Assembly (NCBI GenBank): GCA_964252035.1
Contig: OZ176207.1
Source of the DNA: Podarcis erhardii
Lineage: Eukaryota
DNA length: 64,000 bases
Direction: 5' to 3' (one strand)
The first letter of the stretch is position 1. Every line of letters starts with the position of its first letter. Positions 43,859 to 64,000 of this stretch are shown piece by piece. The notes beneath the pieces were generated by a model. It was given only the letters and a program-made list of their open reading frames with translations. It made no database searches and had not been told where the DNA came from. Position numbers and translations under genes: made by a program.

Positions 43859-44332
43859 CATCTCAATGACCTAAACTCCAGCTATTTATCAGGATAGTAT
43901 CACTGTTTTTTTTGTTTTTTTTTAAAGAGCACATGGTGTCCAGGCTCAAAATTCACTATACCTACTGATAATAAAAAACAAATTCTAATACTGTAAAACA
44001 TTGCGTGGACAGGCGGAATCCCCAGATCCCGAGTGGTCCCCCCGTCATGTGGAATAACGACTCTAGACAACGTGCTATGGGATTAAATTGGCCACAACTT
44101 TATTAAATTTCAAATGTGGGTAGACCTTGGCTCAGGCATTGGGCGTTCTCCCTCCCTAGTCCCCAGCCGGGGACCTAGGGAGCATCAGGGTTATCCAGTG
44201 TGTGTGTGGGGGAATGGGCCGGCTCTGGAGAACATATGTTCAAGCAGAGATAGCCGCCCCCGTTACGCCGCCGCAGGGGAGAGCAATGACGACCTTTCGG
44301 CGTACGGCCAAAGCCTCCCTTCAAAAACCCCT

Positions 44333-44882
44333 TTAACGGGGAACCCTGGTATCGCCGCCGCAAAAAGGAAGATGGACTAAAGGATTCCGCCCAAGGCCTG
44401 ATACCGCCACCCGAGACCGCAAAGATTGCGGTCTTGCCGCCAAGACTACCCACATCTGAAAATCCCCTTTGCCATCCTCCAACCAGTCAATCAGGCCATG
44501 CCTGATGTCGCTCAGCCAACGCTCGTTACCACATTCTGATAGGTGCACGCCATCGGGCCGAAATAGCTCCTTCAGACCAGAAAATCATGATGTTGGGGTG
44601 AGCGGCATGTACGCTTTCCAGGTCCGCGATCGCTGTTTTGATCAGAATTATGCTTTTTTGCACGACCAAGTCATTTTCGCCAAGGTGGAGCACAACCGCG
44701 TTTGGCGGATGGCGGAATGCAAGTTCATGACGCAACCAAGGGAGCAGGGCATCCCATCGCATTCCACGTTGGCCGAACCAGGAAATGGAGATCTTTGGCT
44801 GCAGACCCAGATGTTCTCCGTCTGGACCAGTAGTGGCATGGATGGCCGCCCAATGCACTATGCTGTGGCCGAAGATCCACAC
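44333..44882 (-). pseudogene. SGNH/GDSL-family hydrolase ORF of the element (frameshifting internal deletion near 44565)
   Basis: Block I WIFGHS, block II FGQRG and block III VVLHLGENDL lie in ORF 44526-44882. Block V LFRPDGVHLS lies in another frame (Asp codon 44554-44552). Confidence 0.85.
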
Positions 44883-44912
44883 ATGTTTGGGGGTTGAGCC
44901 TGAAAGAAAGGA

Positions 44913-45821
44913 TTATATGGTATATGTCAGTGTCTGCTGGTTGTTTCGAATATAGCCTTTGAAGGCAGCTGAACGCCACCGCCCCATTGTTTTTATGTGT
45001 TCTGCTGGGAGGCCGCTCGCAGCTGCCGAGGTTGCTGCACCGATACGAAAGGAATGCCCGGAAAATTGTGCCGGGTCGCCTCCACAAACATGGATGGCCT
45101 TATGCAATATTGAGACAAATTGGCAACGGGTCATGGGGTGGCCTGATGCATGAATGAGGAGGGGGCCTGGTCCCGGAGGACGTACCTTCAGGAATTTGCG
45201 TGTGTCCGCGACAGGGCATGGTCCAGTGTGTGGGGAGGAGGCTAGACTTAGTGTGGAACCCCTACCTAGTTGATCGGTTTTTGGAGGCTTGGATTTTGAC
45301 TTGTATCATGCGCCTGTCAAGGTTGATATCAGCCACAGACAAGCCCCTGCGATGAGGTGACAATGTGCCCCCTATGCACTCCCCGATACGGAGCGCACCA
45401 AAGAAGGATAGGGAGAAGGCTGCCCTGAAGAGCCTGACCTCATAGTTGGACCAGCAAATACTGGGGAGCGCATCCCAGATCAGCCGGAGGATCTCTATGG
45501 TTACTGGCCTCCTCTTATCTGGAATGGGCGGGTGGGAGCGACGCCACCCTGCAATAAGCTTCCTTATGTGGAAAGTGTTACAGGGGTCTGGGAGCCAAAA
45601 CAGTTGCTTAAGTAGGAGATAGCGGCCTTGTGCAGGCTGATGGTTTTAAGGGCCATGCCCCTACGCTTTAGGTGAACCAAATATTTTAGAACATCAGACT
45701 CCTTAGCTGTACGCCTGCGACGTAAGCCAAACTTATCTCTGAACCCCTCGGATTGGGACCATGCTCTGGTGTAGGACCGCAGCGTTGATGGTGCAAGGGC
45801 GCTCAGAACTCCTGCTGTCAC
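44913..45821 (-). pseudogene. Tyrosine recombinase, frameshifted
   Basis: N-terminal LAPSTLRSY...YLVHL; manual translation of the middle gives FFGALRIGE (catalytic Arg) and SKTDQ after a frameshift; C-terminal GHSFRIGAAT...MGRWRSAAFKGYIR. Confidence 0.92.
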
Positions 45822-47159
45822 TTCTCCCGTCCAATTTCCCAGAGGTCCTCCGGAAAGGCTTCTGGGAGTTGATCGGCCTCGGGTGCTAGGTCGCGAAAGC
45901 GCTCCATCTGAAAGCGAGACAGGGCATCTGCAATGTCGTTATTGAGGCCCGGGATGAACCGCGCAGAAAAGGAGATGTTACCTTTCAGACATTCCAGCAC
46001 GAAGAGACGGAGCACGCGAATTACCCTGTTGGATTTTGCGGATTGCTTCGCAATGATTCTTACCACCGCCTGGTTGTCCGACCAGAAGCACACCCTGGTG
46101 TCCTTGAGGAGGTGCCCCCAAACACGGAGAGCCACTAGGATTGGGAAAAACTCAAGGAAAGTTTAATCACGTGTAATGCCCTCCTCATGCCAAGATGTCG
46201 GCCAAGGCTGTGCGCACCAGTGACCCCTGAAGTAAGCGCCGAAGCCAAAGCGACCAGAGGCGTCAGAGTGCACCTGTAGCTGTTCCTTAGGCAGCAGGCA
46301 AGATTGTCCAGGGGCAGGCGAGAGGTTTGGCTGACAGAATCCAGTTCAATACCCAGATATGAGATGACGGTGGTTGGACCTTCGGTCTTGTCCGCTGCCA
46401 ACGGGATGCCCAATTCAGCTGCCAGCTGAATGAAGCATGCCAGCACCCTAGCGCACGCGTCTGAGCCCGCTGGCAGGACGTAATGGGAAATGCGGTGGGA
46501 CCCTGACCTGCGTTTCATGGCCCATTCCACGAATGCGCTGAAGGTTTCAAATGCAGCGCATGCGATGGAACAGCCCATGGGCATAGCTTTGTCAAAGTAC
46601 CATTGGTCCTGGAATTTGAAACCTAGCAACCAGAAGTCCCTGGGGTGGACTGGTAACAGACGGAAGGCTGATTCGATGTCACATTTGCCATGAGCGTGCC
46701 CGGGCCACACTCCCTAACCAGCTTGATTGCCTGATCAAGAGATGCATATTTGACTGAGCATTGTTCTTGGGGAATGGCATCATTTACTGACCCACCCTTT
46801 GGGTAAGAAAGGTTATGTATTAATCGAAACTCGCCTGGGGCCTTCTTAGGTACAATACCTAGTGGAGAAACTATGAGGTTAGGAAATGGAGGTTCTGTGA
46901 AGGGACCTGCCACTCGCCCCAGCAAGCATTCTTTGGTAATCTTCTTCTCGGCAATGTGTGGCATATCTCGGACAGACTTTTGGTTGGGGGGATTGGTGCA
47001 TGAGGGGGTGCCTACCACTGGGATGCGGAAGCCTTCCTTAAAGCCCTCCTCAATGTATTTTGCTGCCTCTTTCTTGGGGTACTGGTGTAACAAAGGCAGC
47101 ATTGCTGATAGAGATATGGGTGAGGGGGCTAGGGAAAGGAGAGCACTATTTGCGGGCAT
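45818..47159 (-). pseudogene. Reverse transcriptase + RNase H, disrupted
   Basis: LIVSPLGIVPKKAPGEFRLIHNLSYP; frameshift at ~46685; KCDIESAFRLLPVHP...AMPMGC; YLGIELDS; RNase H HSDAS, LEFFPI, FWSDNQAVV, NDIADALSR. The YxDD motif is absent (SHY-VLPAGS at ~46480), and the RT-RH connection appears deleted at ~46295. Confidence 0.92.
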
Positions 47160-48662
47160 TGTTTTTGCTTTGCTGAGCGCCAGAGGAGCCTGTAGAGGCT
47201 CCGGCCTTTCTTTTGTCTTGAGATGTGCCTGCGCCTGATCCGCGGGAGCCTCGAAAAAGCTTCTTCCCCCGAAAACATTTCATGGTGGGGTGAGATCCAC
47301 TACAGCGCTCGCATTCATGAGCAAATCGACATTTTTCTCTGAAGCAGGAGCCATTGTTATACTCCCAGCAAGATCTCTTGGGGGCCTTGGATTGATATTT
47401 GGACTGTTTCACATTGTCGGGCCCATTCTTGAAGAACGGGGAAACCAACTCAGACCACACGTCATCATCTTTGATATCCCATCTAACTGTGTCGTCCTCT
47501 GCCGCCCGCTCCCTGAATGCCTGGTCATAGGCGAGTGCCGCCTGCCCCCCAGACATGGCTTAGCCTTTAGGATGATGAGTAGGTAGTTGGTCAGGTACCA
47601 ACCCGTATCAGGGTAACTAGTGACTATAATACCCATATAAGTGGTGTATGCAGTGAGCCAATTACGAAAGGTACGCTCAACACTCACTTTTTTATCTTTT
47701 TTCCTCTGCTTGGCGGATTTAGATTTTAGGGCTGTCGAAGCGGCAGGGGATAGCAGATCAAACAAATCCACGAACTCCCCATTAAGGATGCGTTCCCGCA
47801 ACTTCTCGCGCAGGCGAATGCCTGGGGGCTGGTCGGTTCTTTTGTGGTTGGATTTCCTAATTCTACCTCTGGAGTCAATGCCCTCCTCCCCGCATGGCGC
47901 GATAGCACCATGTTCACGCCTGTGCCTCCGGTTGCGGCGCCGCCAGACCCAGTGCGGCAGCCCTGGGGCGTCGGGGCCTGTAACCCAATAGCCTTTGATG
48001 CTCCCCCCCCGTTCACTATCAGTGGAGCTGGACCTACCTGAAGAACTAGATGATCCAGACGAGTCCCTCTTGGACTTGTGGCCCCTCCTCCTGGATTTGT
48101 GGTGTTTCCTCCCGCGATGACGCGATCTGCGCGACTCAGGGCTCTTGTCACTCTTGTACCTGTCAGAGGAGCTGGAACGGGGGGACCTACCTCTGCGCCT
48201 GGTGGATGTGGATGATGAATGTGACCCACCTTCCTGAGCATGGCGGTCAGAGGAGCTGCTACTGCGCCCTCGCTTGCGGCCATGAGGTGACCCGGAGCTC
48301 CCTCTGCGCGAATCCCGCCGCTCCAGGCGGCGCCTCAGCCGGGCGATGGTCCTGTCCCTACTGTCTCCATGCACCGAGTGCGAGAGACTGCTACTAAGAG
48401 AGGAGCGGGTGGAGGAAGAGCTCTCTGTACGTCTCGGCTTGGCAGCCGACCCCCTGCCGGCGCGGCTTGCCAAGGCTAGTGGGCTTCTGGACCCAGAAGA
48501 CCCTCTAGGTGCCGCTGCCCTCTTGGGCTTGGGCTGCTCCCCCCTGGTTGCATGCGCCTTCCGCTGTCTGGTTGCCTGTCTCTGGGCAGGCTTGGTGGGC
48601 GCACCCCTTATGGTGCCCCTTCTGGTGCGGGGAGGGGAAGTAGCCTGACGCTTCGGAGGCAT
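47146..48662 (-). pseudogene. Gag-like ORF1 (Ser/Arg-rich N-half, C-terminal Cys/His finger), one frameshift at ~47557
   Basis: ORF 47409-48662 joins ORF 47146-47556 by a 1-nt shift (ILKAK / AMSGGQAALAYDQAFRERAA...RWD). C-terminal motif CWEYNNGSCFREKCRFAHECERCSGSHPTMKC. Confidence 0.85.
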
Positions 48663-49299
48663 GGTGTGGGGCTAATAGAGTGGGTATGCTAGGGAATCCG
48701 CTAGAAGGGGGGGCAATGATTGGCAGGAAATGCCTGCTAGTAATTCGCAAACACAGGCTAATGATAAAGGTAAGGGTACAATTAATGGGAGGGGAGAGAT
48801 AAGGCAAGAACTGAGTCGCAGCTGGAATCGCTACTGAAGGCTGCAAGATAAAACAAGCAATAGTTTAGAAAATCACTGCACAGGTTTCAGTTGGGGTCCA
48901 TGGGTCTCCCCTCGTTGATAATGAGCGTGATGCCTGCTGTCCGCTGTACCTGCTGGCAAGCCATGATGGTGAGATGTGAAACCAATACGTACCTAATGAG
49001 GCCATAGGTGTGCCTGAGGAGCACCGAGGCATGACAGCCTCCATGCAGCCAGATCCAGGGTGGCCACTGCCATGCGGCCACCGATACAATGGCTGCCACC
49101 ATGCGGTCGCGATTGAAATGGCTGCAGACTTGGAGCCACCACTAAGCAGGCCCTGCCACGGTTTATGGGGGTGTGGGGCAAGCAGAGGCACACACTGTCC
49201 CCCGTGGCCATCTGGGGGGGAGGTGGGTATGCCCGCCAGCTGCAGAGGTCCCCCCGCCACCCAGGGGAGGTTCCAGGGTCGCCAGAGGCCTGGTGTAGG

Positions 49300-50040
49300 C
49301 CGTGGGAGGTGGCAGGGCCTCCCTGTGGCCTAAAAGGCTGGCCAAAGGGGAGGGGAGGCCACGCGGTGTGGCCCGCGGCCCCCCCATGGAATGTGGGGGC
49401 GGCAGGAAGGCCCCTGCCGCCCAGGGGAGGCTCCAAAGCCGCTGTAGGCCCAACTAGTCGCACAATTTGGCAGAGCCTTTCTGAGGCCCAGCTAGGCCTC
49501 CCGGAGCCAGGGGTGGGCACGTGCCAGCCCGTGCCCCCCCAGCGATCACGGGTGTGGCGGGAAGGCCCCTGCCGCCCAGGAGAGGCTCCGGGGCAGGCGG
49601 AGGCCCGACTAGGCCACAGAACGCGGCAAGGCCTCTTCGAGGCCCAGCCAGGCCTCCCTGAGGCCCAGCCAAGCCTCCGGAGCCAGGGGAGGCGGCGCGG
49701 CCCGCAGCCCCCCTGGCGATCGCGGGGGTGGCGGGAAGGCCCCTGCCGCCCCGGGGAGGCTCCAGGGCCGCCGGAGGCCCGACTAGGCCGCGAAACGCGG
49801 CAAAGCCTCACTGAGGCCGAGCCAGGCCTCCTCGAGGCCCAGCCAGGCCTCCGGAGCCGGGGGAGGCCTCGTGGCATGGCCAGCGGCCCCCCGGCGATCG
49901 CGGGGGGCGGCGGGAAGGCCTCCGCCGCCCAGGGGAGGCTCCAGGGCTGGGGGACACGAAGGAGCCCCCCTGAGGCCCAGTAAGGCCTCACAAAATGCGG
50001 CGGGCCTCCCTGCAGCCTAAAAAGGCCGCTTGGAGGCCAC
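49300..50040. repeat. GC-rich degenerate tandem array (~155-180 bp units) in the 5' region of the Ngaro element
   Basis: The anchor gaaggcc(cc/tc)...gccgccc.gg.gaggctcc recurs at 49406, 49561, 49735 and 49914. Confidence 0.85.
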
Positions 50041-51689
50041 CGAGGCCCTGGGGGGTGACTGGGGAGCCCCCTTCCACCACCCACCGCACCCCAGGGCCGC
50101 CAGGCCTGGCGGGGGAAGGGAAGGGCCGCGCGTGGCGTTGCCTCCCCCCCCGCGGCCCACACGCCCCCGCAGGCACGGGGGGCAGCTAGAGGGGCCCCCG
50201 TGCCACCACCCAACACCCCGGGGCATCAGGGCCCGCCTAGGGAAAAGGATCCCCTTTTGAAAGGGTATCCTGAAGTCCATTACCCCCCCCCCCGCTATCC
50301 CTTGGGATCCCTGTAGGGGGGGGGCAAAGGCCCCAGGCTTACCTTTAGGAGCGAGGAAGTCCAGCGACGTCCTTCCTGGAGAATCTCTGGAGCCAAGTGA
50401 GGATTACCAATTAAGATTCACCCTCTATTGTGTGGGCAGGTAATCCCTCCCCCTACCTGGCCTGGTTTCCCTGGCAACACTTCCCCCAGGTGGGATTGGA
50501 CAACTCACTGGGGTAGGCGGGGACCTCCAGGTATCCCACCTGAGGGAAGGCAAAGCCTATGCTGATGGGGCCACTCCAGATCCAGGGCTGCGCGCGTCCA
50601 CGCAAAGGGCGCCCCCCCGTTTTAAGTGGGGAGCGGTCATTTCCTAACAGGAAATTTACACTTTACTTTCTGGTACTTGGGTATCTAGCCTTGGCTGCTG
50701 CCAACATATCAAGAGCATATTTAGTTCCCCACCTATAGTATCAAAAGATCCAAGTGGTTTACATAAAAACAATAAAAGGACAACAATGATATTCAATAGA
50801 ATTCCCTAAAAACTGGATAAAAACAGAATAAAGCTATATGTAGTGGAACTGTCTTTTAGTAGAAATTTGGCATTTACTTTCTGGCAGCTCTTGAAGCCTT
50901 TTTTTTTTTAAATGCCTACAGGCCTACGCAGTCATTTAAAATGTCCCTTGAGCCATTTTCACAATTGCTTCGCGTTCCTTTAAACGTTCCTGTGCTGTTG
51001 TACCCCCACCCTCATGTTTGGGGAGAGGGCAGTTTCTAAACACTTTGATAAATAAATAATAGATCAAATAAAACTGAACCGTGTACAAATCAGGGAACTG
51101 CAAACAGGGTCTCTTGGGAAGATTTTAAAGATCATCATGGTCTGTACTCCAGGGAAGTGGTTTACTATGCGATACCGGCTGCAAGCGGTTTAGGTTGACC
51201 TGAATCAATTTGTAGCAATTCATGTTGATCTGGGGTGCAAAACAATATCTAAAAAAGACAAAAGAGTTTCCACATTGTTGTGGTTATTAATAACACTACA
51301 GAAGGATAACACACAGATGGGAAGAGGGAGAGGCAGAGAGCTGGACTTCGCTTATTGAAAGCTCTAGCTTCAAATCCAGGGCAAGACTAGCCACTAAGCC
51401 TGCTCTGGGTGGGCGGCAGTTGCAGCACTTTGTGGTCTGCCTTCCATTCCAGGGAAACAAGGAGTTTCATCTTTGAGGCTTGCCTTGTAATTCCCTGGCC
51501 AGCTGCCTCACGGCCAGATTAGCCTGCCAATAAACTAAATTTGAATGGCTGGTAGAGGGTGGAGCTTGGCCAGTAGACCTGAGAGAGGATGTTCTCATTC
51601 TGGTCAGCCAGGCAAGTTACAGCCGGGCACCTAACACCCAGCACCCTCCAACCACAGGGCTTTATGGGAGAGATAGAAAGCTTTGTTCT

Positions 51690-52008
51690 TGTTATGTGCA
51701 AAGCTTGGATCCTAGAATGATAGGCAAGTAGGTTCCCAGAATGCAACAACTGATTGGCTTGCAGGAAAAGACCAATCAGGCTCCAGGAGGAAGTTAATCA
51801 GCCTGTTAGGCTGGTAGGATCGTAGAATGCAACAACTGATTGGCCTGCAGGAAAAGACCAATCAGGCTCCAGAAGGGAAGCAGAATCAGCCAATCAGACG
51901 GGACTCATTGTGTAAATAAAAGCCTGAGGTTTGGGGGGCAATTCGATCACTGTTTTACAAGCTGCAATAAAGAGCATGAAATCACTACAGGACTCTGAGT
52001 ATATTTCC
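51690..52008 (+). mobile_element. Solo LTR with an 86-bp-period internal duplication
   Basis: Starts TGTTA and ends ...atatttcc; TSD gttct at 51685-51689 and 52009-52013. Several CCAAT/ATTGG boxes, TATA-like gtaaataaaa at ~51913 and AATAAA at 51966-51971. Confidence 0.8.
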
Positions 52009-54179
52009 GTTCTGCTTTCTGTATTTGTCTTCATTACTCTTTGTCTTTTGTGTGCGTCAGTAAGTCTTGGGGGAAGAAAACTCCAGGGAGTCGCTCAGCC
52101 CCACCACTTCACAGAAACCAGTTCTAGATAGGCAGGCAGGCAGGCAGTGACAAAGGAAGCAGACACTGAAGGGGGGAACAGCCCCTTGCCAGGTTGGCAA
52201 CTACAGACTCCACATAACAGTGTTGAAGCAGAAGGAGACTGAATAGCACCAGAACACAAAGACCATGAGAACTGGCAAGACTGAGCACTCAAATGGCAGT
52301 ACAGTCTTAGAAACAAACAAACAAACAAACTTTAAATGTGTCTGCCACAAAACTCTTGGAGCTACCTATCTGCAGTTTGACAGGGTTCACCCCCTCTTTG
52401 AATGGCTATCATGTCTCTAAATTTCATGCACTTATGTGTGAGTGGGGCAGTTATAACTATTTGGTTTCCTAATGTGAGTGAATGGGAGTAGTGAAGAATT
52501 GGATTTTCAGATCCAGATCAGGTCAGAATGCATCAGGTTGAGATCAACTTTTTCTGAATTGAGACCAGATTCAGATTGCTGAATCAGACCCGGACCTGGA
52601 TTGGGAAGCATAGCCCTAGTGTTTATATATCCAAGTAACTAGTGCATGGCAGATTTCTCCTGATAAAGGCAATACTGATACATGTTGGGTACTCAACTAT
52701 CCTTTCATACTCAACAGTATTAGCAACAGTTTTAAACAGATTGCAAATCTGTCTGCTATACTTTATTTGTTCAGTTTCTCCATATTGGGTGTGGACCTCT
52801 TGTCCCCCCACCTACAGAAGTCACTGAATTCAGTGAGACTTTCTTCTAGATAAATATGCATAGATGTTTGCAGCCCAGATCTATCTGTCTAGACAGTTCC
52901 TTCTTAACTCCACTCACTTCACATTCTTTTTTGATATTACCTGCTCAAGAGTTAGTTTTCAGTGGTTGTTGGATTGCTCTTCCTTCTAAATTACGTGTTC
53001 ATTCTTTGATATCCCTCTTTGTATTCGAGAGTTATCTCTGAGTACTCAACTCTTCCCAAATCTCCACCCATCTGTTTCTTGTTGAAGACCTGCAGCTTAA
53101 CATCCCCAGTCTTTGTTTCTGCCACAACTTCATCTAAGGCTTAACATTCTTTTTTTGCCTATTGAAGTTGTCACTGGGCCAAGAATTTTCTGTTCTTCTG
53201 GTTTCCTTTTCAATACCATCTTGCTATCATGAATATTTCTGAAGCTACAGTAGAATCTTAGGTCTGTCATATCTTATATAACATTTTAACCATGGATCTC
53301 ACCTGGTGAGTGAAATCTATGGTAAGTTGCATTAAGAATTTGTGCTATGTGTGACATTCACTCACTCACTCACCCCCACATATATGAATCAGCTTTGTGT
53401 CTTTTGCATTTCTCTTCATACGCTCATATGCATTGTGCCGCCTCATTGTAATTATCATCTGACAAAGCGCAGGAAACAATATTTATAGGATCAGAGGATT
53501 TTCAGCTAAGGAAGCAATGCTTTTCCTAACTAATACAATATTATAATGATAGGATGTGCCTGTGTGTCAGTGAATACCATTCATTTTCTATAAGTTTCTC
53601 ATTGCAAGAGATTTAGTGGGTATCTCACATGACCATACAATCCTTTCCCCCTATCAGTCAAGGAATAATTTATCGACTCAAATTCCCTCCCTGGTTGCTT
53701 CATGTTACGGATAATTTGAAGGCATCCATCAGCAGGACCAATGTTCATTGTGACTCATGATGTCTTTCAAGCATGTGTGATTTTAAAACTAATGATGTTT
53801 TGCGGTATCTATTTGTTATATGAAAATTTAGGTTTGGCTTTTGCAGCCCAACACCCAAGGGACTCCATGATCAGTCATAGAAGACTGAGTGAAGACAGGA
53901 AGCTGTAGAAGAAAAGCAAGGAAGATTTTAATTTTTCTGTTGCAACAGAATTCTCATCCTGCCCCGAAAGGTGAGGTCCCAGAATAAAAGTGTGTAGCAA
54001 TTTAAAAAGACTCCAGAAATTGCCAAACTGCTTGGCCAAGACCAATCTAAAACATTATACATGCATCACAGAAACAGGCAACTGACAACAGAAATTTGAG
54101 GGTGTGGCTTGTCTGCTGTTTGTCCAGATACTCAATAATGCCTGCTGATTGGATTATCCTGGCCAGTCTGGATAGTACC

Positions 54180-54588
54180 TGTCAGGGAACTGCCATCAGG
54201 GCCGGAGGGAGAGAGCGTCCCGGGATGGGGAGAGGCAACCCATCTTCTGGGGAAGAGAATCAGCGTAGCACCAGTGGAGAAGGGGGGCAGATGGGGGAAT
54301 CGGCGAGGCGGTCCCATGACTCCTTGCCAGGGACCAGCGGGGAGAGTAAGGGTCCTCCGCTGCCTACACCCTCCTTGCGCAGAAGGCTTCCGCGCAGGGA
54401 GAGTAGGAGGAGACTAGGCGTCAAAGAGCTTCTTTGCTGGAAGAAGTTCAAGAAATGCCCACTGACGGATTCTGCCAGCGATTGAGACAGCCACGGGTGA
54501 GTGGTTGTCCAGACAGAAAAGGTTCACTCAGGCAACCCAGCCAGGTGTTGCACTGGTTTACGCACGAGCAACCCCTAGAACCACTACA
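54180..54588. mobile_element. Solo LTR (409 bp)
   Basis: TGT...ACA ends; perfect 5-bp TSD gtacc (54175-54179, 54589-54593); homologous to 56111-56522. Confidence 0.88.
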
Positions 54589-56110
54589 GTACCCTAATGA
54601 AACCATTGTCCTGTCATCCCCTATTATACACAAAAATACGATCTTTTGACAGGATCTTTTGACAAGTGAAAGGAACTATTGGGAAAGGTTTTTCTGAGAC
54701 ACTTCCTTCTGCAGAGAAATATTTAGGGTCATTAAGTAAGGCAAGTTGACTTCAGGTTTCTGCTATGTACTAAAATAAAGTTTCCTAATTTTGAAGGGTG
54801 AAATATTGCTTTTCTGTGGAGTGTGGTCTGCTATGTGTATGCACTTTAAAACAGCTGGAGGGCTGAATTTGGGGATGCTTGGATTAAAGCCTCCACAAAG
54901 CCTCATGTATCTCCGTTAGTTGATTGTTTCTACACTTGAATGTATATTATAGCTCTATATTTCCCATATTGTTATGTTTCTCTAGATCCGTGTGCTTTGC
55001 AAGAAGTGAGGTTGTCCAAAATGTTGCTTGTGGCACACTGAAGAGCTCTGAGTTGTTATAGTTAAAGAACAGCAGCATAGAACTTTTTTGTTCACTTTTA
55101 ACAAAAAACTTAGAGCTCTTTGCAACTCCAAGGCAACATTTTGGATAGCTTCATGTTGTATGGCCACTTGTGGGCGTGTAGGGTTTGTCAGGAGACAGAA
55201 AATAGCCACCAGAAAGAGAGAGCAGTGTGAAGCTGCTAAGTTTTAGGAATGTGCAATCAAGAACACATACCACTTGGGTTACCTCTTAATTATTTTCAGG
55301 TGAGAAAGAGAAAGAGACAACCTTATTTATCCCACCACATAAGAGATAATGGAGGAAAGTGAATCACTTTTCCCACAAAATGTTTCTTAATCTATTTGTC
55401 CGTAATTGGGGGTAGGATGTTGAAAAAAAAGGTCTGCTGGGGAAAAAAGGGTCAGTAGTTCATTGTTCTTTAAGTTACGGCTGTGAGAGCAGTGTGGTGG
55501 CTGCTTTCTTTCCCAATTGTACTTTTTCCTAGCAAACAAACAATATCTCCCATCTCTTTCTTTATGGAAGGTTTTTACAGGAATGGGGAGGGCAGTGATA
55601 ATCTCTCCTCAGTTTTTTTTTTTAAACCAAGCTGATATTACCCCAAGGCACAATAGTCTCTGGAACCATTTCCCTGAACTATGGCAGGATTCTTTCCCAG
55701 GGGCACCTCCTTCAGATCCCCATTTTTCAAACTGTTTGCTCCCTAAAAACTAGGTGAGGGCATGGGATTTCTATTTTTTTCACCCCAAAAGGGCTTTTAA
55801 TACTGTTTATGAGCTCCAAAACCTTTTATTTAACAAGATACCATGAATCATTCACTAAACTGCACACCTAAAGTTTGGAGATGTACAAATGGTGGAACCA
55901 GGTGCAAAAATAATGTATTATGTGCCTTTGATCACGTCCTTGCCCTCTGATCAATAATATATATTCCTTGGAGTTTAGTCCAGCATGCCAAATTCATGTT
56001 CAGCTTCTAAAGTTCACTTTTTTTCTTTGAAACCAATGATAAACACATTTTCCCAAATATATATAAATAAGAATTTAAACAACCATGAAGGGGAAATTGT
56101 TGTCCTACCT

Positions 56111-56522
56111 TGTCAGGGAACTGACATCAGAAGGAGAGGTGGAGGCAAGGCTCCACAGCGATGCAGGAGAGGGGACCAGCAGGGGGGAAGGTATTCAGCG
56201 TAACACCGGTAGGGAAGGGAGGGAAATGGAGGATTCGGAGAGAGGTCTCCAAGACCCTTCACCCGAGACTAGTGGGGAGAGCGCGGACACGCCTTTGCCT
56301 TCCCCTTACTTGCGCAGACGAGTTCCACGCAGGGAGAGTAGGAGGAGACTTGGCGTCAAACAGCTCTTATGCTGGAAGAGGTTCAAGAAACGCCCACTGA
56401 CGGATTCTGCAAGTGACTGACCGGCCACGGAGTGTGAGCTGTCAGCCAAAGCATGGTTGGCCAGGCAATCTAACCAAAACGGAAGGCAACTTACGCACAA
56501 GTAACCCCTTACAACCATTACA
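56111..56522. mobile_element. Solo LTR (412 bp), same family as 54180-54588
   Basis: TGT...ACA ends; perfect 5-bp TSD tacct (56106-56110, 56523-56527). Confidence 0.88.
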
Positions 56523-57594
56523 TACCTATATCCTAAAAACTCAAAACAAATGAACAAAAAACCATTATGCAGAGAATACACACACACACACACACACACA
56601 CATGGATGTGGTGTGAGGTACTTTCCCTGGCTTCCCACACCAGCCACAATTTCTGGTGACACACAGCAAGGTAAGCGGTGACCCCTTCTCCAAATTTCTG
56701 CTGCCTCAGAAAGCAGCAATTATTTATCCCCATTTTTACAGGGGGAGATTTTTTTTTTTTTTTTAAGAAATCTGAACTGGGGAGCGGAGACCAGCCTTAC
56801 TATGTTGGGACTTTTGACAGACTCATTCTTGCAAAATCATTTTGCAACACAAATTGTCATAGATGATTGATTGTTTTCAGAGTGATCCATTGCATTCCAA
56901 TTCACGTTCTACCCTATAGACCCAGAAGAAAACAATTGGATGGTTTTGAGCATACACATTACACATATCACCTCTGAAGCGATGGATTTTGGTGTAAACC
57001 ATTCCAAGCATCACACATACAAGCTAATGTCTGAAATATAATGCTCATCAATATGCCAGAAGATAATACACTATTGAAAGTGATGTATTACCTTTTGGCG
57101 TGTTGCCAGAAACTGTTGTTTGGGTATATATTTTTCCCTCTTTGTATGCTTGGTGTTCAACACTGCAGAACCCTCACCCCTCAGCTTTAGAAGAGTTTAA
57201 CACATTCCAAAGTTGTACAAGGAAATAATCTGAAGGACTATTTGACATTAAAATGGAGTCTGATAAGTGTCATGAATTTATTGAACATGAATTTCTTAAA
57301 AAGTGTAACTGAGATTGCATACACTATTCCTTGACCCTCCCTAAAAGAATCCTGGGAACTATAATTTGTTAAGCATGTTGGGAATTGTAGCCCTGAAAGG
57401 GGTAAGCTAAAGTTCTCAGGGTTCTTTTGGACAGAAAATGTGCTTTAAATGCATGGTGCACATATCTATTATCTTCAAATCTAATACCTCAATGAAACTG
57501 ACATCAGCAAAGGGAAAAGTTAATGACTATGCAGATGAGGTTTTCCTCAATTGTTTCTCTTTATTTAAATTAAACATAATTTAATTTTTCATTG

Positions 57595-58315: not shown

Positions 58316-58363
<48 letters not shown>

Positions 58364-58408
58364 GGTTTTGGTGTCCTCGGGTGTCTTCCCGTGTAAAAGT
58401 TGGGGTGT

Positions 58409-58454
58409 CTAGGCGACGTTTCGACGAGGTCTCACTCGTCATCTTCAGGCTGGT
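58409..58454 (-). ncRNA. Second copy of the hammerhead motif (left PLE arm)
   Basis: Exact reverse complement of 61525-61570 (core at 58415-58448). Confidence 0.7.
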
Positions 58455-60546
58455 GCTTTCGGCTTCTTGTTACTGGAACAGAGCAGGATCTCAGTGTTTG
58501 AGTTCCTATAAATACTGTAGAGGGGGTGTGGTGTATAGCCTCCAATGTTCTGGGCAGAGAGGAAGTTCCCAGGCTAGTGTGCCTTTTCTTCTTTTGTTCC
58601 TTAATTACTTGAGAGATATCTTGAGTGATTTCTTGAGTGATATCCTGAGTACCACTTAGGTGGGTCATTAGGTGTGGATTAGTTGCTAAAGTCTTTGTGT
58701 CTTGACCTCTTGAACTTTGTGAAGAGTTTTCCTGAGAAGATGGCTGTACTGTACTTAGTTGTGCTCTGGCTTGGCTTCGTGTATAGGGGCGAGCTGTGGT
58801 TTTGTGGCTTGTGTCAGCCAGATCTGTGTAGGGATTGCAGGGGGGTGCAGCATCCGGAGGTGCTACCATGGATTGGCTACTGGATGGTGTCTGTAATTCA
58901 TCTGTGGAGAGGGTCTGGGTTTGGGTCTGGTGTGGTTGATTGGTGTTGGCGTTCTGTGTGCCTCTGGATCTGGTGTCAGTTTTTGTGGGGAGGGCTAATT
59001 TCCAGATGTCTGGCAAGCGGGATGTGTCGTCACGCTTGTTCATGTTGTGAGGGTGTTTCTCTATCTCGATGGCTTCCATGATTATTCTCTTGTGGTGATG
59101 TTCCGTGTTAAAGAGCAATTTGGAATCTGCAAAATTAATTTCGTGTCCTGTTTCTTTCATGTGTTGGAAAAGAGAGGAAGTTTTTTCTTCTTTTTTGACG
59201 GCATTCTTGTGTTCTGCGATACGTGCATTTATTCGTCTGTTTGTTTGTCCAATGTACGTGGCTGGGCAGACTTTGCAGGGTATTTCATAGATCCCTTGGT
59301 TTTCCAACTGGATTTTATCCTTGGGGTTTCTGAGGATATTGGCTATTTTTTGGTTGGTGCAAAAGGCTGTTTTGATATTGTGTTTATGGAGGATTTTGCT
59401 AATTTTATCTGTAGTGCCCTTGATATAAGGAAGGAGGGCCATGCCATTGTTTTCTTCTGTGTCTTGGTTTTTGGGGGGTGTTTCCTTTTGGATTAGCTTC
59501 GTAATCCTGTTTTGCTGGTATCCATTGGCAATTAACACGTTTGAGAGATTCTGTAACTCAGTTGTCAAGTGGTCTTTGTCAGCCAGGCGTTTGGTTCTGG
59601 AGATGAGAGTCTTGGCTACGGAGTTTATTTGTGCAGGGTGGTGGTGTGATTGTGCATGTAAGTAGCGGTTGGTGTGTGTTTTTTTCCGGTAGATAGTGTG
59701 TCCTAGGGAGCCATCAGGTTTTTTGTAGATTAGGACGTCAAGGAAGGGAAGTTGGTTGTTGGCTTCTATTTCCATAGTGAATTGTATTTTGGGGTGTAAG
59801 TTGTTGAGATGTGTGAGGAAGCTATCCAGTTTTTCCTTCCCGTGTGGCCAAATTACAAAGGTGTCGTCAACATATCTGAGCCAAAGTTTGGGTTTGTGTT
59901 CTGACTTGTCTAAAGCATTGGTTTCAAAGTGTTCCATGTACAGGTTTGCGATGACCGGTGAGAGGGGTGATCCCATAGGTGCTCCTTCTATCTGTTTGTA
60001 TCTTTGTCCATTGTGGATGAAGTACGTGTTGGTTAGGCAGTGGTTGGTCAGGTCCAAGATGTATTCGGGGGGATTGTATTTGTTTTGAATAGCTGTCAAG
60101 GCTTCATTAATGGGCACTTGTGTGAAGAGAGATACAACATCGAAGCTCACAAGTAGGTCATTAGGATGTAGGTTTTGCTTCTTTATTGTTTCTATGAACT
60201 GGAAGGAGTTTGGTACGTGTGAAGAGATGGATTCTGCATAGGGCTGAAGTTGCTTGGCGAGAAATTTAGCGAGATTTTGTAGAGGTGAGCCTATGGAGCT
60301 GACTATTGGTCTGAGTGGTGTTCCTTCTTTGTGTATCTTGGGGAGGCCGTAGAGTTTGGGGCATCTGGATGATTTTTCTCTGGGGATGATTCTTAGCTGG
60401 ATTTCTTCACTGATAGGAGAGGCTTTTATTTTGGATTTGGTGGTTTTTTCCAGGTAGGTGGTGGGATCTGTTTTTATAGGTTTGTAGGCAGGATCTTGGA
60501 GTAGATTTGATAGTTTTGCTTGGTAGTCCGATGTGTTCATCACCAC
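58432..60546 (-). CDS. PLE reverse transcriptase - GIY-YIG endonuclease (704 aa open, N-terminally truncated)
   Basis: PKLYGLPKIHK, FDVVSLFT, GAPMGSPLSPVIANLYME, RYVDDTF, GIYEIPCKVCPATYIGQT. No internal stops. It begins at VVMN, inside the usual N-terminal region. Confidence 0.93.
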   Translation of the reverse strand: MVMNTSDYQAKLSNLLQDPAYKPIKTDPTTYLEKTTKSKIKASPISEEIQLRIIPREKSSRCPKLYGLPKIHKEGTPLRPIVSSIGSPLQNLAKFLAKQLQPYAESISSHVPNSFQFIETIKKQNLHPNDLLVSFDVVSLFTQVPINEALTAIQNKYNPPEYILDLTNHCLTNTYFIHNGQRYKQIEGAPMGSPLSPVIANLYMEHFETNALDKSEHKPKLWLRYVDDTFVIWPHGKEKLDSFLTHLNNLHPKIQFTMEIEANNQLPFLDVLIYKKPDGSLGHTIYRKKTHTNRYLHAQSHHHPAQINSVAKTLISRTKRLADKDHLTTELQNLSNVLIANGYQQNRITKLIQKETPPKNQDTEENNGMALLPYIKGTTDKISKILHKHNIKTAFCTNQKIANILRNPKDKIQLENQGIYEIPCKVCPATYIGQTNRRINARIAEHKNAVKKEEKTSSLFQHMKETGHEINFADSKLLFNTEHHHKRIIMEAIEIEKHPHNMNKRDDTSRLPDIWKLALPTKTDTRSRGTQNANTNQPHQTQTQTLSTDELQTPSSSQSMVAPPDAAPPCNPYTDLADTSHKTTARPYTRSQARAQLSTVQPSSQENSSQSSRGQDTKTLATNPHLMTHLSGTQDITQEITQDISQVIKEQKKKRHTSLGTSSLPRTLEAIHHTPSTVFIGTQTLRSCSVPVTRSRKHQPEDDE

Positions 60547-61547
60547 TTCCCTATATCAAGGGCACTACAGATAAAATTAGCAAAATCCTCCATAAACACA
60601 ATATCAAAACAGCCTTTTGCACCAACCAAAAAATAGCCAATATCCTCAGAAACCCCAAGGATAAAATCCAGTTGGAAAACCAAGGGATCTATGAAATACC
60701 CTGCAAAGTCTGCCCAGCCACGTACATTGGACAAACAAACAGACGAATAAATGCACGTATCGCAGAACACAAGAATGCCGTCAAAAAAGAAGAAAAAACT
60801 TCCTCTCTTTTCCAACACATGAAAGAAACAGGACACGAAATTAATTTTGCAGATTCCAAATTGCTCTTTAACACGGAACATCACCACAAGAGAATAATCA
60901 TGGAAGCCATCGAGATAGAGAAACACCCTCACAACATGAACAAGCGTGACGACACATCCCGCTTGCCAGACATCTGGAAATTAGCCCTCCCCACAAAAAC
61001 TGACACCAGATCCAGAGGCACACAGAACGCCAACACCAATCAACCACACCAGACCCAAACCCAGACCCTCTCCACAGATGAATTACAGACACCATCCAGT
61101 AGCCAATCCATGGTAGCACCTCCGGATGCTGCACCCCCCTGCAATCCCTACACAGATCTGGCTGACACAAGCCACAAAACCACAGCTCGCCCCTATACAC
61201 GAAGCCAAGCCAGAGCACAACTAAGTACAGTACAGCCATCTTCTCAGGAAAACTCTTCACAAAGTTCAAGAGGTCAAGACACAAAGACTTTAGCAACTAA
61301 TCCACACCTAATGACCCACCTAAGTGGTACTCAGGATATCACTCAAGAAATCACTCAAGATATCTCTCAAGTAATTAAGGAACAAAAGAAGAAAAGGCAC
61401 ACTAGCCTGGGAACTTCCTCTCTGCCCAGAACATTGGAGGCTATACACCACACCCCCTCTACAGTATTTATAGGAACTCAAACACTGAGATCCTGCTCTG
61501 TTCCAGTAACAAGAAGCCGAAAGCACCAGCCTGAAGATGACGAGTGA
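60546..61547 (+). pseudogene. Inverted duplicate of the PLE ORF 3' part (linker + GIY-YIG + C-terminal tail)
   Basis: The translation from LPYIKG to QPEDDE is identical to the minus-strand ORF. The first codons of track ORF 60507 are antisense RT sequence, not a true start. Confidence 0.9.
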
Positions 61548-61570
61548 GACCTCGTCGAAACGTCGCCTAG
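61525..61570 (+). ncRNA. Minimal type I hammerhead ribozyme motif in the PLE pseudo-LTR
   Basis: CTGAAGA (61531-61537), extra T, stem II GACGAG-tgagac-CTCGTC (61539-61556), GAAA (61557-61560), then CGTC. Stem III is minimal and palindromic; stem I is weak. Confidence 0.7.
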
Positions 61571-62661
61571 ACACCCCAACTTTTACACGGGAAGACACCC
61601 GAGGACACCAAAACCTGCATTCCTGTACCCGTGAAAATCTACGAAAGCAAATATATATATATATATATATATATGTCCCCACTGAAAAACTACATATACC
61701 AGGATCCTTCAGATGTATCTCTAGAATTCTTTGTTGTCATAATTTTCCTGACAAGCTGTGCTGTGCTTCCCTAGCAGAAGGAGCAGAAGGTCTGAAACAG
61801 CCAGCATCTCTTTTTGATTTCTCCAAGTGTTATCTTCAAGCAACTTTTATGCAAAATTCACACTGAGAAGCTGTCATTTTTAGCTCAGCTTTTGGGGTGA
61901 ATTCATAAATGTTTTCTGCTTCACCTGGCATGACAGGTGCCCACGATTAATAAATGAAAAGAATGGTCAGTTGTGTTGATTAATATGGGAATCAATTCTC
62001 TCCCGCCCCCCCTTTGTACAGCAGCAGATGAATAGATTTATTTTTCTAAACCACAGTGTCAGTTTCCCCCCTCTTTGGGCAGCCTAGCAGTTCATGGCTG
62101 GTAAACACCAGTATAACATTGTTTTAATCCCATGTTCTCTGAATGGTAAATTAAGAAGCACCTCTGTAGAAACAAGGCAGTGTAGCAGCATCAACAGACA
62201 CTCCCTCTTGTCAACACAGGAACTCATACTCTAAAAAGAGGTTTCCACACCACACCCTCCCAGTGGTGGAGCTTCATGCTCTGGCACCGGGAGGCGGAGA
62301 GCAGGCAGGGGCAGGACTGACATGCATCCTGAGGGCGTGGCACACATCCTGGGGGCATGGCACGCCACCTGCAGGGGCGTGGCACCCAGTGTGGGCGGGG
62401 GCAGCTGCGATGGCACCCCACCAGGATCGCGCTGCTCCTCTTCCTCTGCCAGTGTACCCTCCTACAGGAGCTCCAATCCACCCTTGATAAGCGCCTGCTC
62501 TGTTGACCCCACCCTTCTTCCCATTCTGATTTCACTGGTGCAAATGCGTAAGCATAGCAATGGCACATTTTAAAACTCAATCAGTGCAGGGAAGATTTAC
62601 CAGTGATCTTATCTCTGCCCACCAGACATAACTTGTGATAAGATTATACAACAAACCTGGC

Positions 62662-62730: not shown

Positions 62731-64000
62731 AATAAATTTATTATTTATACCCCGCCCATCTGGCTGAGTTTCCCCAGCCACTCTGGGCGGTTTGCAATCA
62801 AGTGTTAAAAACAATACAACATTAAATATTAAAAACTTCCCTAAACAGGGCTGACTTCAGATGTCTTTTAAAGCGAGGATAGCTGCTTATTTCCTTCACA
62901 TCTGAAGGGAGAGCGTTCCAAAGGGCGGGCACCACTACCGAGAAGGCCCTCTGTCTGGTTCCCTGTAACCTCACTTCTCGCAATGAGGGAACCACCAGAA
63001 GGCCCTCAGCGCTGGATATCAGTGTCCGGGCTGAACAATGGGGGTAGAGACGCTCCTTCAGGTATACTGGACCGAGGCCGTTTAGGGCTTTAAAGGTCAG
63101 CACCAACACTTTGAATTGTGCTCGGAAACGTACTGGGAACCAATGCAGATCTCTCAGGACCGGTGTTATGTGGTCCCGGTGGCCACTCCCAGTCACCAGT
63201 CTAGCTGCCGCATTCTGGATTAATTGCAGTTTCCAGGTCACCTTCAAAGGTAGCCCCACGTAGAGCGCATTGCAGTAGTCCAAGCGGGAGATAAAGAGAG
63301 CATGCACCACTCTGGCAAGTCAGTCCGCAGGCAGGTAGGCTCTCAGCCTGCGTACTAGGTGGAGCTGGTAGACAGCTGCCCTGGACACAGAATTAACCTG
63401 CGCCTCCGTGGACAGCTGTGAGTCCAAAATGACTCCCAGGCTGCGCACCTGGTCCTTCAGGGGCACAGTTGCCCTGTTCAGGACCAGGGAGTACCCCACT
63501 CCCACCCGCCCCCTGTCCCCCCAAAACAGTACTTCTGTCTTGTCAGGATTCAACCTCAATCTGTTAGCCGCCATCCATCCTCCAACCACCTCCAGACACT
63601 CACACAGGACCTTCACTGCCTTCGCTGGTTCTGATTTAAAAGAGGTAGAGCTGGGTGTCATCTGCATACTGATGAACACCCAGCCCAAACCCCCTGATGA
63701 TCTCTCCCAGTGGCTCCATATAGATATTAAAAAGCATGGGGGAGAGGACGGAACCCTGAGGTACCCCACAAGTGAGAGCCCAGGGGTCTGAACACTCATC
63801 CCCCAACACCACTTTCTGGACATGGCCCAGGAGAAAGGAGCGGAACCACTTGTATAACAGTGCCCCCAGCTTCCAGCCCCTCTAGACGGTCCAGAAGGAT
63901 GTTATGGTCAATGGTGCCAAAGGCTGCTGAGAGATCCAGCAGAACTAGGAAACAGCTCTCACCTTTGTCCCTAGGCAGTTTTAGTCCCATGGTGAGGCCT
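62731..64000 (-). mobile_element. L2-clade LINE (ORF2 RT and C-terminus, frameshifted), runs off the window edge
   Basis: LVLLDLSAAFGTIDHNILLDRL; HQYADDTQLY by manual translation near 63650-63675; HALFISRLDYCNALYVGLP...HITPVLRDLHWFPV; 3' UTR shared with 41690-41779. Confidence 0.92.

Follow-up and report, generated by a model that had tools for sequence, protein, structure and literature searches.

The arginine-rich reading frame of two solo LTRs in Podarcis erhardii very probably encodes the end of a Ty3/gypsy chromovirus Pol

Tf1/sushi retrotransposons are described as self-priming, in that the 5′ end of their RNA pairs with the primer binding site (PBS) (PMC4600332, PMC6317226), and their att sites follow the consensus TGTYANR / CNTNACA (Table 3 of PMC3601003). 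In group A of the plant CRM elements, pol extends into the 3′ LTR, and the CR motif encoded there is a conserved putative targeting domain (PMC3059260, PMC3605345). The integrase of Ty1 ends in a bipartite nuclear localization signal (NLS) whose linker is the targeting domain (PMC7459421). Host partners of LEDGF/HRP2 carry a TND-interacting motif (TIM), defined as a helix, an acidic linker of 8–16 residues and FxGF (PMC9987994); FxGF is essential in all known partners, and several have tandem motifs (PMC9987994; 10.1101/624023). We report that an arginine-rich frame shared by two solo LTRs of a lizard is very probably the last ~100 codons of the Pol of a Ty3/gypsy chromovirus, with a basic end that is likely a nuclear-import and chromatin-/DNA-binding tail, and that the locus holds, in all probability, a silent LTR copy of this selected Pol tail.

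The window, that is, the whole stretch of P. erhardii DNA analyzed, is 64 kb long and contains the following features.

54180..54588, plus strand: solo LTR of subfamily A, 409 bp (434 bp in its sister copy), with TG...CA ends and target-site duplication (TSD) GTACC
54210..54485, plus strand: Pol tail in LTR A, 3′ of a frameshifting 25-nt deletion near 54209/54210
54375..54482, plus strand: basic C-terminal 36 codons in LTR A, with an Arg-rich stretch, a short predicted helix and a basic cluster
56111..56522, plus strand: solo LTR of subfamily B, 412 bp, with TG...CA ends and TSD TACCT
56112..56420, plus strand: C-terminal 102 codons of Pol and the stop, encoded by LTR B, open and cut off from the rest of pol
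56310..56417, plus strand: basic C-terminal 36 codons in LTR B

The two LTRs are independent solo insertions, each with its own 5-bp TSD (54175–54179 and 54589–54593 for LTR A, 56106–56110 and 56523–56527 for LTR B), and they share, as a preliminary description had stated, a frame that ends at the same TGA (54483–54485 and 56418–56420). The 4-nt offset reported there near the 5′ end is present and can now be broken down: copy A has a 25-nt deletion relative to its sister copy, from which an in-frame difference of 21 nt between subfamilies A and B (109 vs 102 codons) is to be subtracted. The frame of copy A is shifted near the 5′ end by this deletion; that of copy B has no stop between LTR base 2 and the TGA. 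Over the last 36 codons we obtained the same count as before, 12 differing codons, 8 synonymous and 4 nonsynonymous (L/V, E/Q, K/R and C/R). The differences fall 5/1/8 on the three codon positions, and the synonymous excess is significant against 24.5 synonymous sites of 108 (P = 0.0014, binomial test).

That the two copies lie only 1.5 kb apart could suggest that the host has co-opted both solo LTRs at this locus and selects their frame. However, copy A is frameshifted by its deletion, and the window LTRs A and B are only 6 and 8 substitutions away from their sister copies, so the A–B differences are of subfamily level and predate insertion. At least 2,330 and 2,798 candidate places in the 1.5-Gb genome were found with the two LTR queries (40 for each were scored), and some close pairs would thus be expected by chance. 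We give co-option practically no credence. Nine of the best 40 LTR-B matches lie on contig C19 (30 Mb, 2% of the assembly), where many matches of a further search also fall, seven near-identical copies (L136–L142) among them; this contig may be a repeat-accumulating sex chromosome.

Other repeats are also evident in the window. At 58329–61674, a 1075-bp perfect inverted repeat surrounds a 707-aa RT/endonuclease-like ORF (58432–60555, minus strand), whose 3′ part is duplicated on the plus strand; we take this to be a young Penelope-type element. A GC-rich block at 44000–52000 contains RT-like fragments (46135–47279, minus strand), a 420-aa Ser/Arg-rich ORF (47409–48671, minus strand) and tandem units of 155–179 bp (49251–49965), and is similar to a DIRS/Ngaro-type element. 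Broken LINE RT-like frames on the minus strand at 62822–63901 appear to us to be L2-like.

In the P. erhardii genome, LTR pairs ~5.1 kb apart flank gag-pol elements of ~5.5 kb with 5-bp TSDs. Gag of these full-length relatives contains Retrotrans_gag and zf-CCHC, and Pol has the Pfam order RVP/RVT_1/RT_RNaseH/Integrase_H2C2/rve/SH3_Tf2-1/Chromo. Past the chromodomain, the pol frame continues through an acidic spacer with two FxGF motifs and the polypurine tract (PPT), enters the 3′ LTR at base 2 and ends at the stop seen in the window. Pol continues for ~190 residues beyond the chromodomain, ~100 of them within the LTR. Among nine A/B elements with a whole 3′ LTR, the frame from chromodomain to stop is uninterrupted in four (L031, L032, L066 and L072; 763 codons of uninterrupted pol frame to the LTR stop in L066), reaches the stop in a fifth (L033) after two shifts that compensate each other, and is interrupted upstream in the remaining four. 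It is uninterrupted in all seven elements of subfamilies C–F, which were found by protein query and therefore lean to intact copies. Two UniRef Pol proteins of Podarcis muralis (P0002 and P0275) terminate in the same tail, and P. muralis UniRef entries are its only named relatives among the proteins searched (582–2000 and 367–2000 residues). The continuity with pol bears out the earlier suggestion that the parental element encodes this peptide at the C-terminal end of an ORF that extends into the LTR. From LTR base 2 to the stop there are 109, 102, 100, 96, 100 and 100 codons in the six subfamilies, all length differences 5′ of the stop being multiples of three, and the noncoding part 3′ of the stop measures 102–104 bp in the five subfamilies with a fixed LTR end. 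The gag and pol frames overlap, pol lying at −1 relative to gag (592–1683 and 1599–3899 in L033; 1071–2192 and 1988–6118 in L104), which implies ribosomal frameshifting.

The orientation had been regarded as unsettable for want of AATAAA. The five subfamily LTRs examined indeed contain neither AATAAA or listed variants on the sense strand nor AATAAA/ATTAAA on the antisense strand, unlike the Sushi LTR model, which has AATAAA near its 3′ end (PMC3601003); but gag-pol, PPT and PBS set the orientation, and plus is the sense strand. With gag, PR-RT-RNaseH-IN, no env, TG..CA LTRs and 5-bp TSDs, the element is of Ty3/gypsy type, and the chromodomain at the integrase C-terminus makes it a chromovirus. 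Of the two origins first considered, LTR retrotransposon or ERV, the former thus stands, and an ERV was ruled out by the lack of env and the gypsy-type domains. The element resembles Tf1/sushi (the vertebrate V-clade) in domain order, integrase-end chromodomain, 5-bp TSD and a PBS complementary to an LTR site. The att sites of subfamilies A and B read TGTCAGG ... CATTACA (window copy A differs at one base), and the CATCACA end of subfamilies C, D and F deviates from the 3′ consensus by one base. Gag is closest to that of PEG10 among solved structures, again as in Tf1/sushi. In contrast to Tf1/sushi, Pol extends ~190 residues past the chromodomain, in which the first and third cage aromatics are lost. 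The element appears to be of Tf1/sushi type by its priming mode and att sites; in an integrase-core tree whose rows included no named sushi or Tf1 references, no branch was starred.

As in CRM group A, the lizard pol frame extends into the 3′ LTR. In CRM, however, the CR motif replaces the chromodomain, whereas the lizard element has a chromodomain and an LTR-coded tail together; it also differs in its animal host, in self-priming and in the dispersed, unclustered location of its young copies (100 listed of 170). The lizard element is therefore CRM-like in layout without being a CRM member, and an extension of Pol into the LTR already has its precedent in the plant CRM elements. Subfamily D, the youngest, has 170 exact junctions in the genome; among the 100 listed, 16, 11, 20, 10, 17, 12, 5 and at least 9 lie on C1–C8, scattered along the chromosomes with no clustering. 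This scatter fits noncentromeric integration and does not show gene targeting. Our full-text literature searches turned up neither an LTR-coded integrase tail in any vertebrate chromovirus nor FxGF/TIM motifs on a retrotransposon integrase; subscription papers, Repbase or Dfam may hold a description of either.

We then pooled natural copies as three independent subfamily pairs (A–B, C–F and D–E). Over the last 36 codons, there are 31.5 synonymous differences at 78.7 sites and 20.5 nonsynonymous differences at 245.3 sites (pN/pS 0.21, P = 2.9×10−10, Fisher's exact test), with no stops; over the last 57 codons, pN/pS is 0.23 (P = 5.9×10−17). The alternative frames give pN/pS of 0.93–2.2 with 4–12 stops; the one exception is the mirror frame (0.39), whose third positions are those of the pol frame. 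There is thus purifying selection at the protein level between subfamilies, in this frame only, as had been supposed from the two window copies. Along Pol, omega pooled over 15 subfamily pairs, which are non-independent and partly saturated, is 0.06 in the integrase core, 0.12 in the chromodomain, 0.13 in the FxGF spacer, 0.73 in the first ~50 LTR codons, and 0.20 in both the acidic/Pro block and the basic end. The value for the first ~50 LTR codons is nearly neutral, and this part may be no more than a linker. For the basic segment and the integrase core, synonymous divergence is 0.49 vs 0.93 for A–B, 0.64 vs 0.59 for C–F and 0.53 vs 0.43 for D–E; the lower A–B value in the basic segment possibly reflects some nucleotide-level constraint or recombination.

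Variation within subfamilies shows a different pattern. Among the 90 best-scoring A, B and C copies, singleton variants number 38 synonymous and 58 nonsynonymous (synonymous site share 0.24–0.26), and the excess of synonymous singletons is significant in subfamily A only (P = 0.009). The LTR frame is open in 22 of 27 A copies, 21 of 30 B copies and 26 of 29 C copies. In the youngest subfamily, D, all 30 LTRs have 96 open codons; they were chosen by a junction that lies outside the frame. Because solo copies decay after insertion, selection acted on replicating lineages and not on the two window copies.

The last codons of the frame overlap a second feature of the LTR.

54461..54471, plus strand: predicted self-primer in LTR A, 11 nt complementary to the PBS, at the predicted RNA 5′ end (U3/R border) and overlapping codons P-L-T-D-S
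56396..56406, plus strand: predicted self-primer in LTR B, 11 nt complementary to the PBS

Counting from its third position, 11 PBS bases are the exact complement of the LTR site in 18 of 20 distinct LTR/PBS junctions (not counting rows in which the pattern lay at an unrelated site, internal or flanking, and with duplicate loci entered once). Five primer-site variants co-vary with the PBS, each matching its own, and the exact 11-nt complement is found in 27 of 30 subfamily D copies. The pairing indicates a predicted self-priming of Tf1/sushi type. Priming by tRNA was ruled out, as the PBS does not start with TGG and pairs with the LTR instead. From this covariation, the RNA is predicted to start at the self-primer, ~24 nt 5′ of the stop, and U3 (~281–285 bp) would be coding over its full length in the 3′ LTR and would not be transcribed in a 5′ or solo LTR. 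With this predicted start, the basic segment falls 5′ of the transcript of a solo LTR and would not be expressed from it; of the frame, the LTR's own promoter would yield only the last seven or eight codons. Every solo LTR would then carry a silent tail, since the LTR is copied to both ends of the element and LTR–LTR recombination leaves one of them in place. The predicted R-U5 leader (54461–54588 and 56396–56522 in the window) folds with the 11-nt primer pairing to the PBS around internal hairpins, a fold obtained for all four subfamily copies folded, and a conserved TTACGCAC block lies ~30 nt 5′ of the LTR end.

The conservation could in principle reflect DNA or RNA signals such as promoter, primer and hairpins, with the codon pattern incidental. 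This holds for codons −8 to −4, where the sequence is also the self-primer of reverse transcription and is therefore invariant at the nucleotide level except in the one codon that co-varies with the PBS. Conservation of DNA or RNA sequence irrespective of codon position, which the preliminary description gave as a ground for refutation, is thus seen in these codons only. A T-rich stretch 25–31 nt 5′ of the primer site, on the L-L-C codons, is present in most subfamilies (absent in A) and may be a TATA-like element. However, the 27 codons 5′ of the primer site still have pN/pS of 0.20 (P = 4.4×10−9), and in the Arg-rich and ELLCW blocks (pN/pS 0.13 and 0.11) 39–70% of synonymous sites differ while the residues stay. 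Ser is maintained through AGT vs TCC/TCT and Arg through AGA vs CGC; a DNA motif cannot explain residues kept across disjoint codon families, and the multiples of three among the length differences before the stop likewise argue against it. A nucleotide signal is thus refuted as the whole explanation, for which we see scarcely any chance, and stands for the last ~8 codons.

The preliminary description also envisaged a small basic stand-alone protein or accessory ORF, similar in composition to Rev/Rex. Such an independent ORF, with its own start or a spliced mRNA, would be expressible from solo LTRs, and it would suit the Arg-rich composition, the ATG-containing frame of copy B that is open across all of U3, and one UniRef gene model (P0003) that terminates in this frame. 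But the frame is continuous with pol, the element is not a retrovirus, and no Met is common to the LTR frame across subfamilies (there is none at all in C, E and F); the predicted RNA start 3′ of the basic segment and the decay of solo copies point the same way. An independent accessory ORF is already largely refuted, and we regard it as very improbable. The frame is instead the tail of Pol, at the end of integrase.

In an AF2 model, the chromodomain is folded (pLDDT ~90) and is followed by a helix at residues 66–72, disorder, and a short helix at the SVKELLCW block (mean pLDDT 59); the segment from the chromodomain to the basic end is predicted to be disordered, and its charge shifts from acidic to strongly basic toward the C-terminus. 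The tail has no Pfam match and no match of 0.9 or above in the ESM Atlas (best 0.78), where a query of chromodomain plus tail returned chromodomain clusters only. Compared with PDB sequences, the basic 59 codons gave a single chance-level match (MFSD2A, E 0.92). The classical bipartite NLS pattern (two basic residues, a 10-residue spacer, three of five basic) is present in six of six copies but also in 33–49% of shuffles, so nuclear import is not singled out by it. For the basic end, we also considered an arginine anchor of CENP-C-like or acidic-patch type, and a literature search for one found nothing.

The tail is similar to that of Ty1 in being a disordered integrase tail with basic clusters and a short host-binding motif (PMC7459421), a likeness at the level of description; Ty1, unlike the lizard element, belongs to the Copia superfamily and binds the Pol III subunit AC40, and its tail is not reported there as LTR-coded. 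By analogy with Ty1 and CRM, the basic end is most likely the nuclear-import and chromatin-binding end of integrase, and it probably binds importin and/or nucleosomal DNA. The tail would putatively stay on the mature integrase. Alternatively, it could be translated with Pol and then released by the element's protease to act as a separate small protein, either an RNA chaperone or a chromatin tether of the particle. The disordered spacer and the nearly unconstrained first ~50 LTR codons are what a cleavable linker would look like, and an Arg-rich peptide could bind RNA; yet a conserved hydrophobic cleavage-like site is not apparent in the linker, which varies among subfamilies in length and sequence, and the C-terminal targeting tails of Ty1 and CRM belong to integrase itself (PMC7459421, PMC3059260). 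We judge a cleaved tail to be unlikely.

The chromodomain (PF00385, E 3×10−11) has HP1 as its best PDB match, but the first and third cage aromatics of HP1 are missing in all seven copies from the P. erhardii genome, and P0002 retains only the first of these two. By its sequence, it is not a type I chromodomain, that is, a methyl-lysine reader with three cage aromatics. C-terminal to it and 5′ of the LTR, all seven copies carry two motifs of a hydrophobic stretch, an acidic Ser/Thr-rich linker (8 and 9 residues) and FxGF, the codons of which show synonymous changes. A strict form of this pattern, written after the motifs had been seen and with an i,i+4 spacing that misses motif 1 in C, D and E, occurs once or twice in six of six tails, compared with 3–18 of 20,000 shuffles and never twice in a shuffle. 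Among 30 further loci found with a query bearing one such motif, 22 have two motifs before the first stop, 6 have one and 2 have none. In some subfamilies motif 1 reads FxGY, as it does in 3 of 19 rows of an alignment whose selection pattern required motif 2. In the AF2 model, motif 1 coincides with the helix at residues 66–72 and motif 2 is not helical, both being in a region of low confidence.

The motifs also occur outside this genome. Among outside chromodomain proteins (87 of 150 parsed), four have an acidic FxG(F/Y) downstream and all four lack both cage positions, whereas it occurs in none of the 71 proteins with a full cage; the four are relatives of this lineage and represent one event, not four. 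A search of 1.84 billion representatives was dominated by chromodomains, with an acidic FxGF in 5 of the 150 listed. Three distant chromodomain proteins (P0031, P0009 and P0026) have an acidic FxGF, and P0031 ends in a basic LLCW block, which places the origin of the tail before that of the subfamilies in this genome. Searches of the FxGF alignment and of each motif against PDB sequences gave no matches at E 10.

The two motifs match, as a predicted resemblance, the TIM of LEDGF/HRP2 partners. Like JPO2, IWS1, KMT2A/MLL1 and POGZ, the lizard tail combines a hydrophobic stretch, predicted to be helical in motif 1 only, an acidic linker of 8–9 residues and FxGF in tandem (PMC9987994), and it differs from these partners in that its motifs sit on a retrotransposon integrase. 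Fusions of LEDGF with TIM partners have been solved (6emo, 6emp, 6emq and 6emr). Both LEDGF-family genes are present in the host genome, where a LEDGF exon has 97% identity to proteins of Podarcis and Lacerta. A complex prediction of the lacertid LEDGF integrase-binding domain (P0157, 400–490) with the double-FxGF segment, run without alignments or folded controls, scored 0.18 and 0.16 against a mark of 0.34, and we count it neither for nor against binding. The FxGF motifs may stand in for a methyl-lysine-reading chromodomain and tether integrase to LEDGF/HRP2 or a different TND protein, a putative role to which we give a chance just short of even. Taken further, a cage-less chromodomain, two tandem TIMs mimicking LEDGF/HRP2 partners and an LTR-coded basic chromatin-binding end would mean that heterochromatin reading has been traded for active-chromatin tethering, which we propose tentatively.

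U3 also serves as the end of pol, and thousands of solo LTRs consequently bear a silent frame that looks selected; such a frame is a trap for ORF scans and gene builders. The UniRef entry A0A670JKR6 of P. muralis (P0003), a gene model of a phospholipid-transporting ATPase, takes its last 47 residues from this LTR frame, likely as a gene-builder artefact and possibly by exonization. The LEDGF domain recognized by TIM partners is also bound by lentiviral integrases, via their folded core, and these are not known to use an FxGF motif for it. If the FxGF motifs of the lizard element bind LEDGF/HRP2, the integration-site choice of an abundant and recently active vertebrate element becomes testable. 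If true, this would be a convergent use of the H3K36me2/3 tether by lentiviruses and a gypsy element, and a second, independent retroelement capture of the HIV integration cofactor, achieved by motif mimicry and not through the lentiviral interface.
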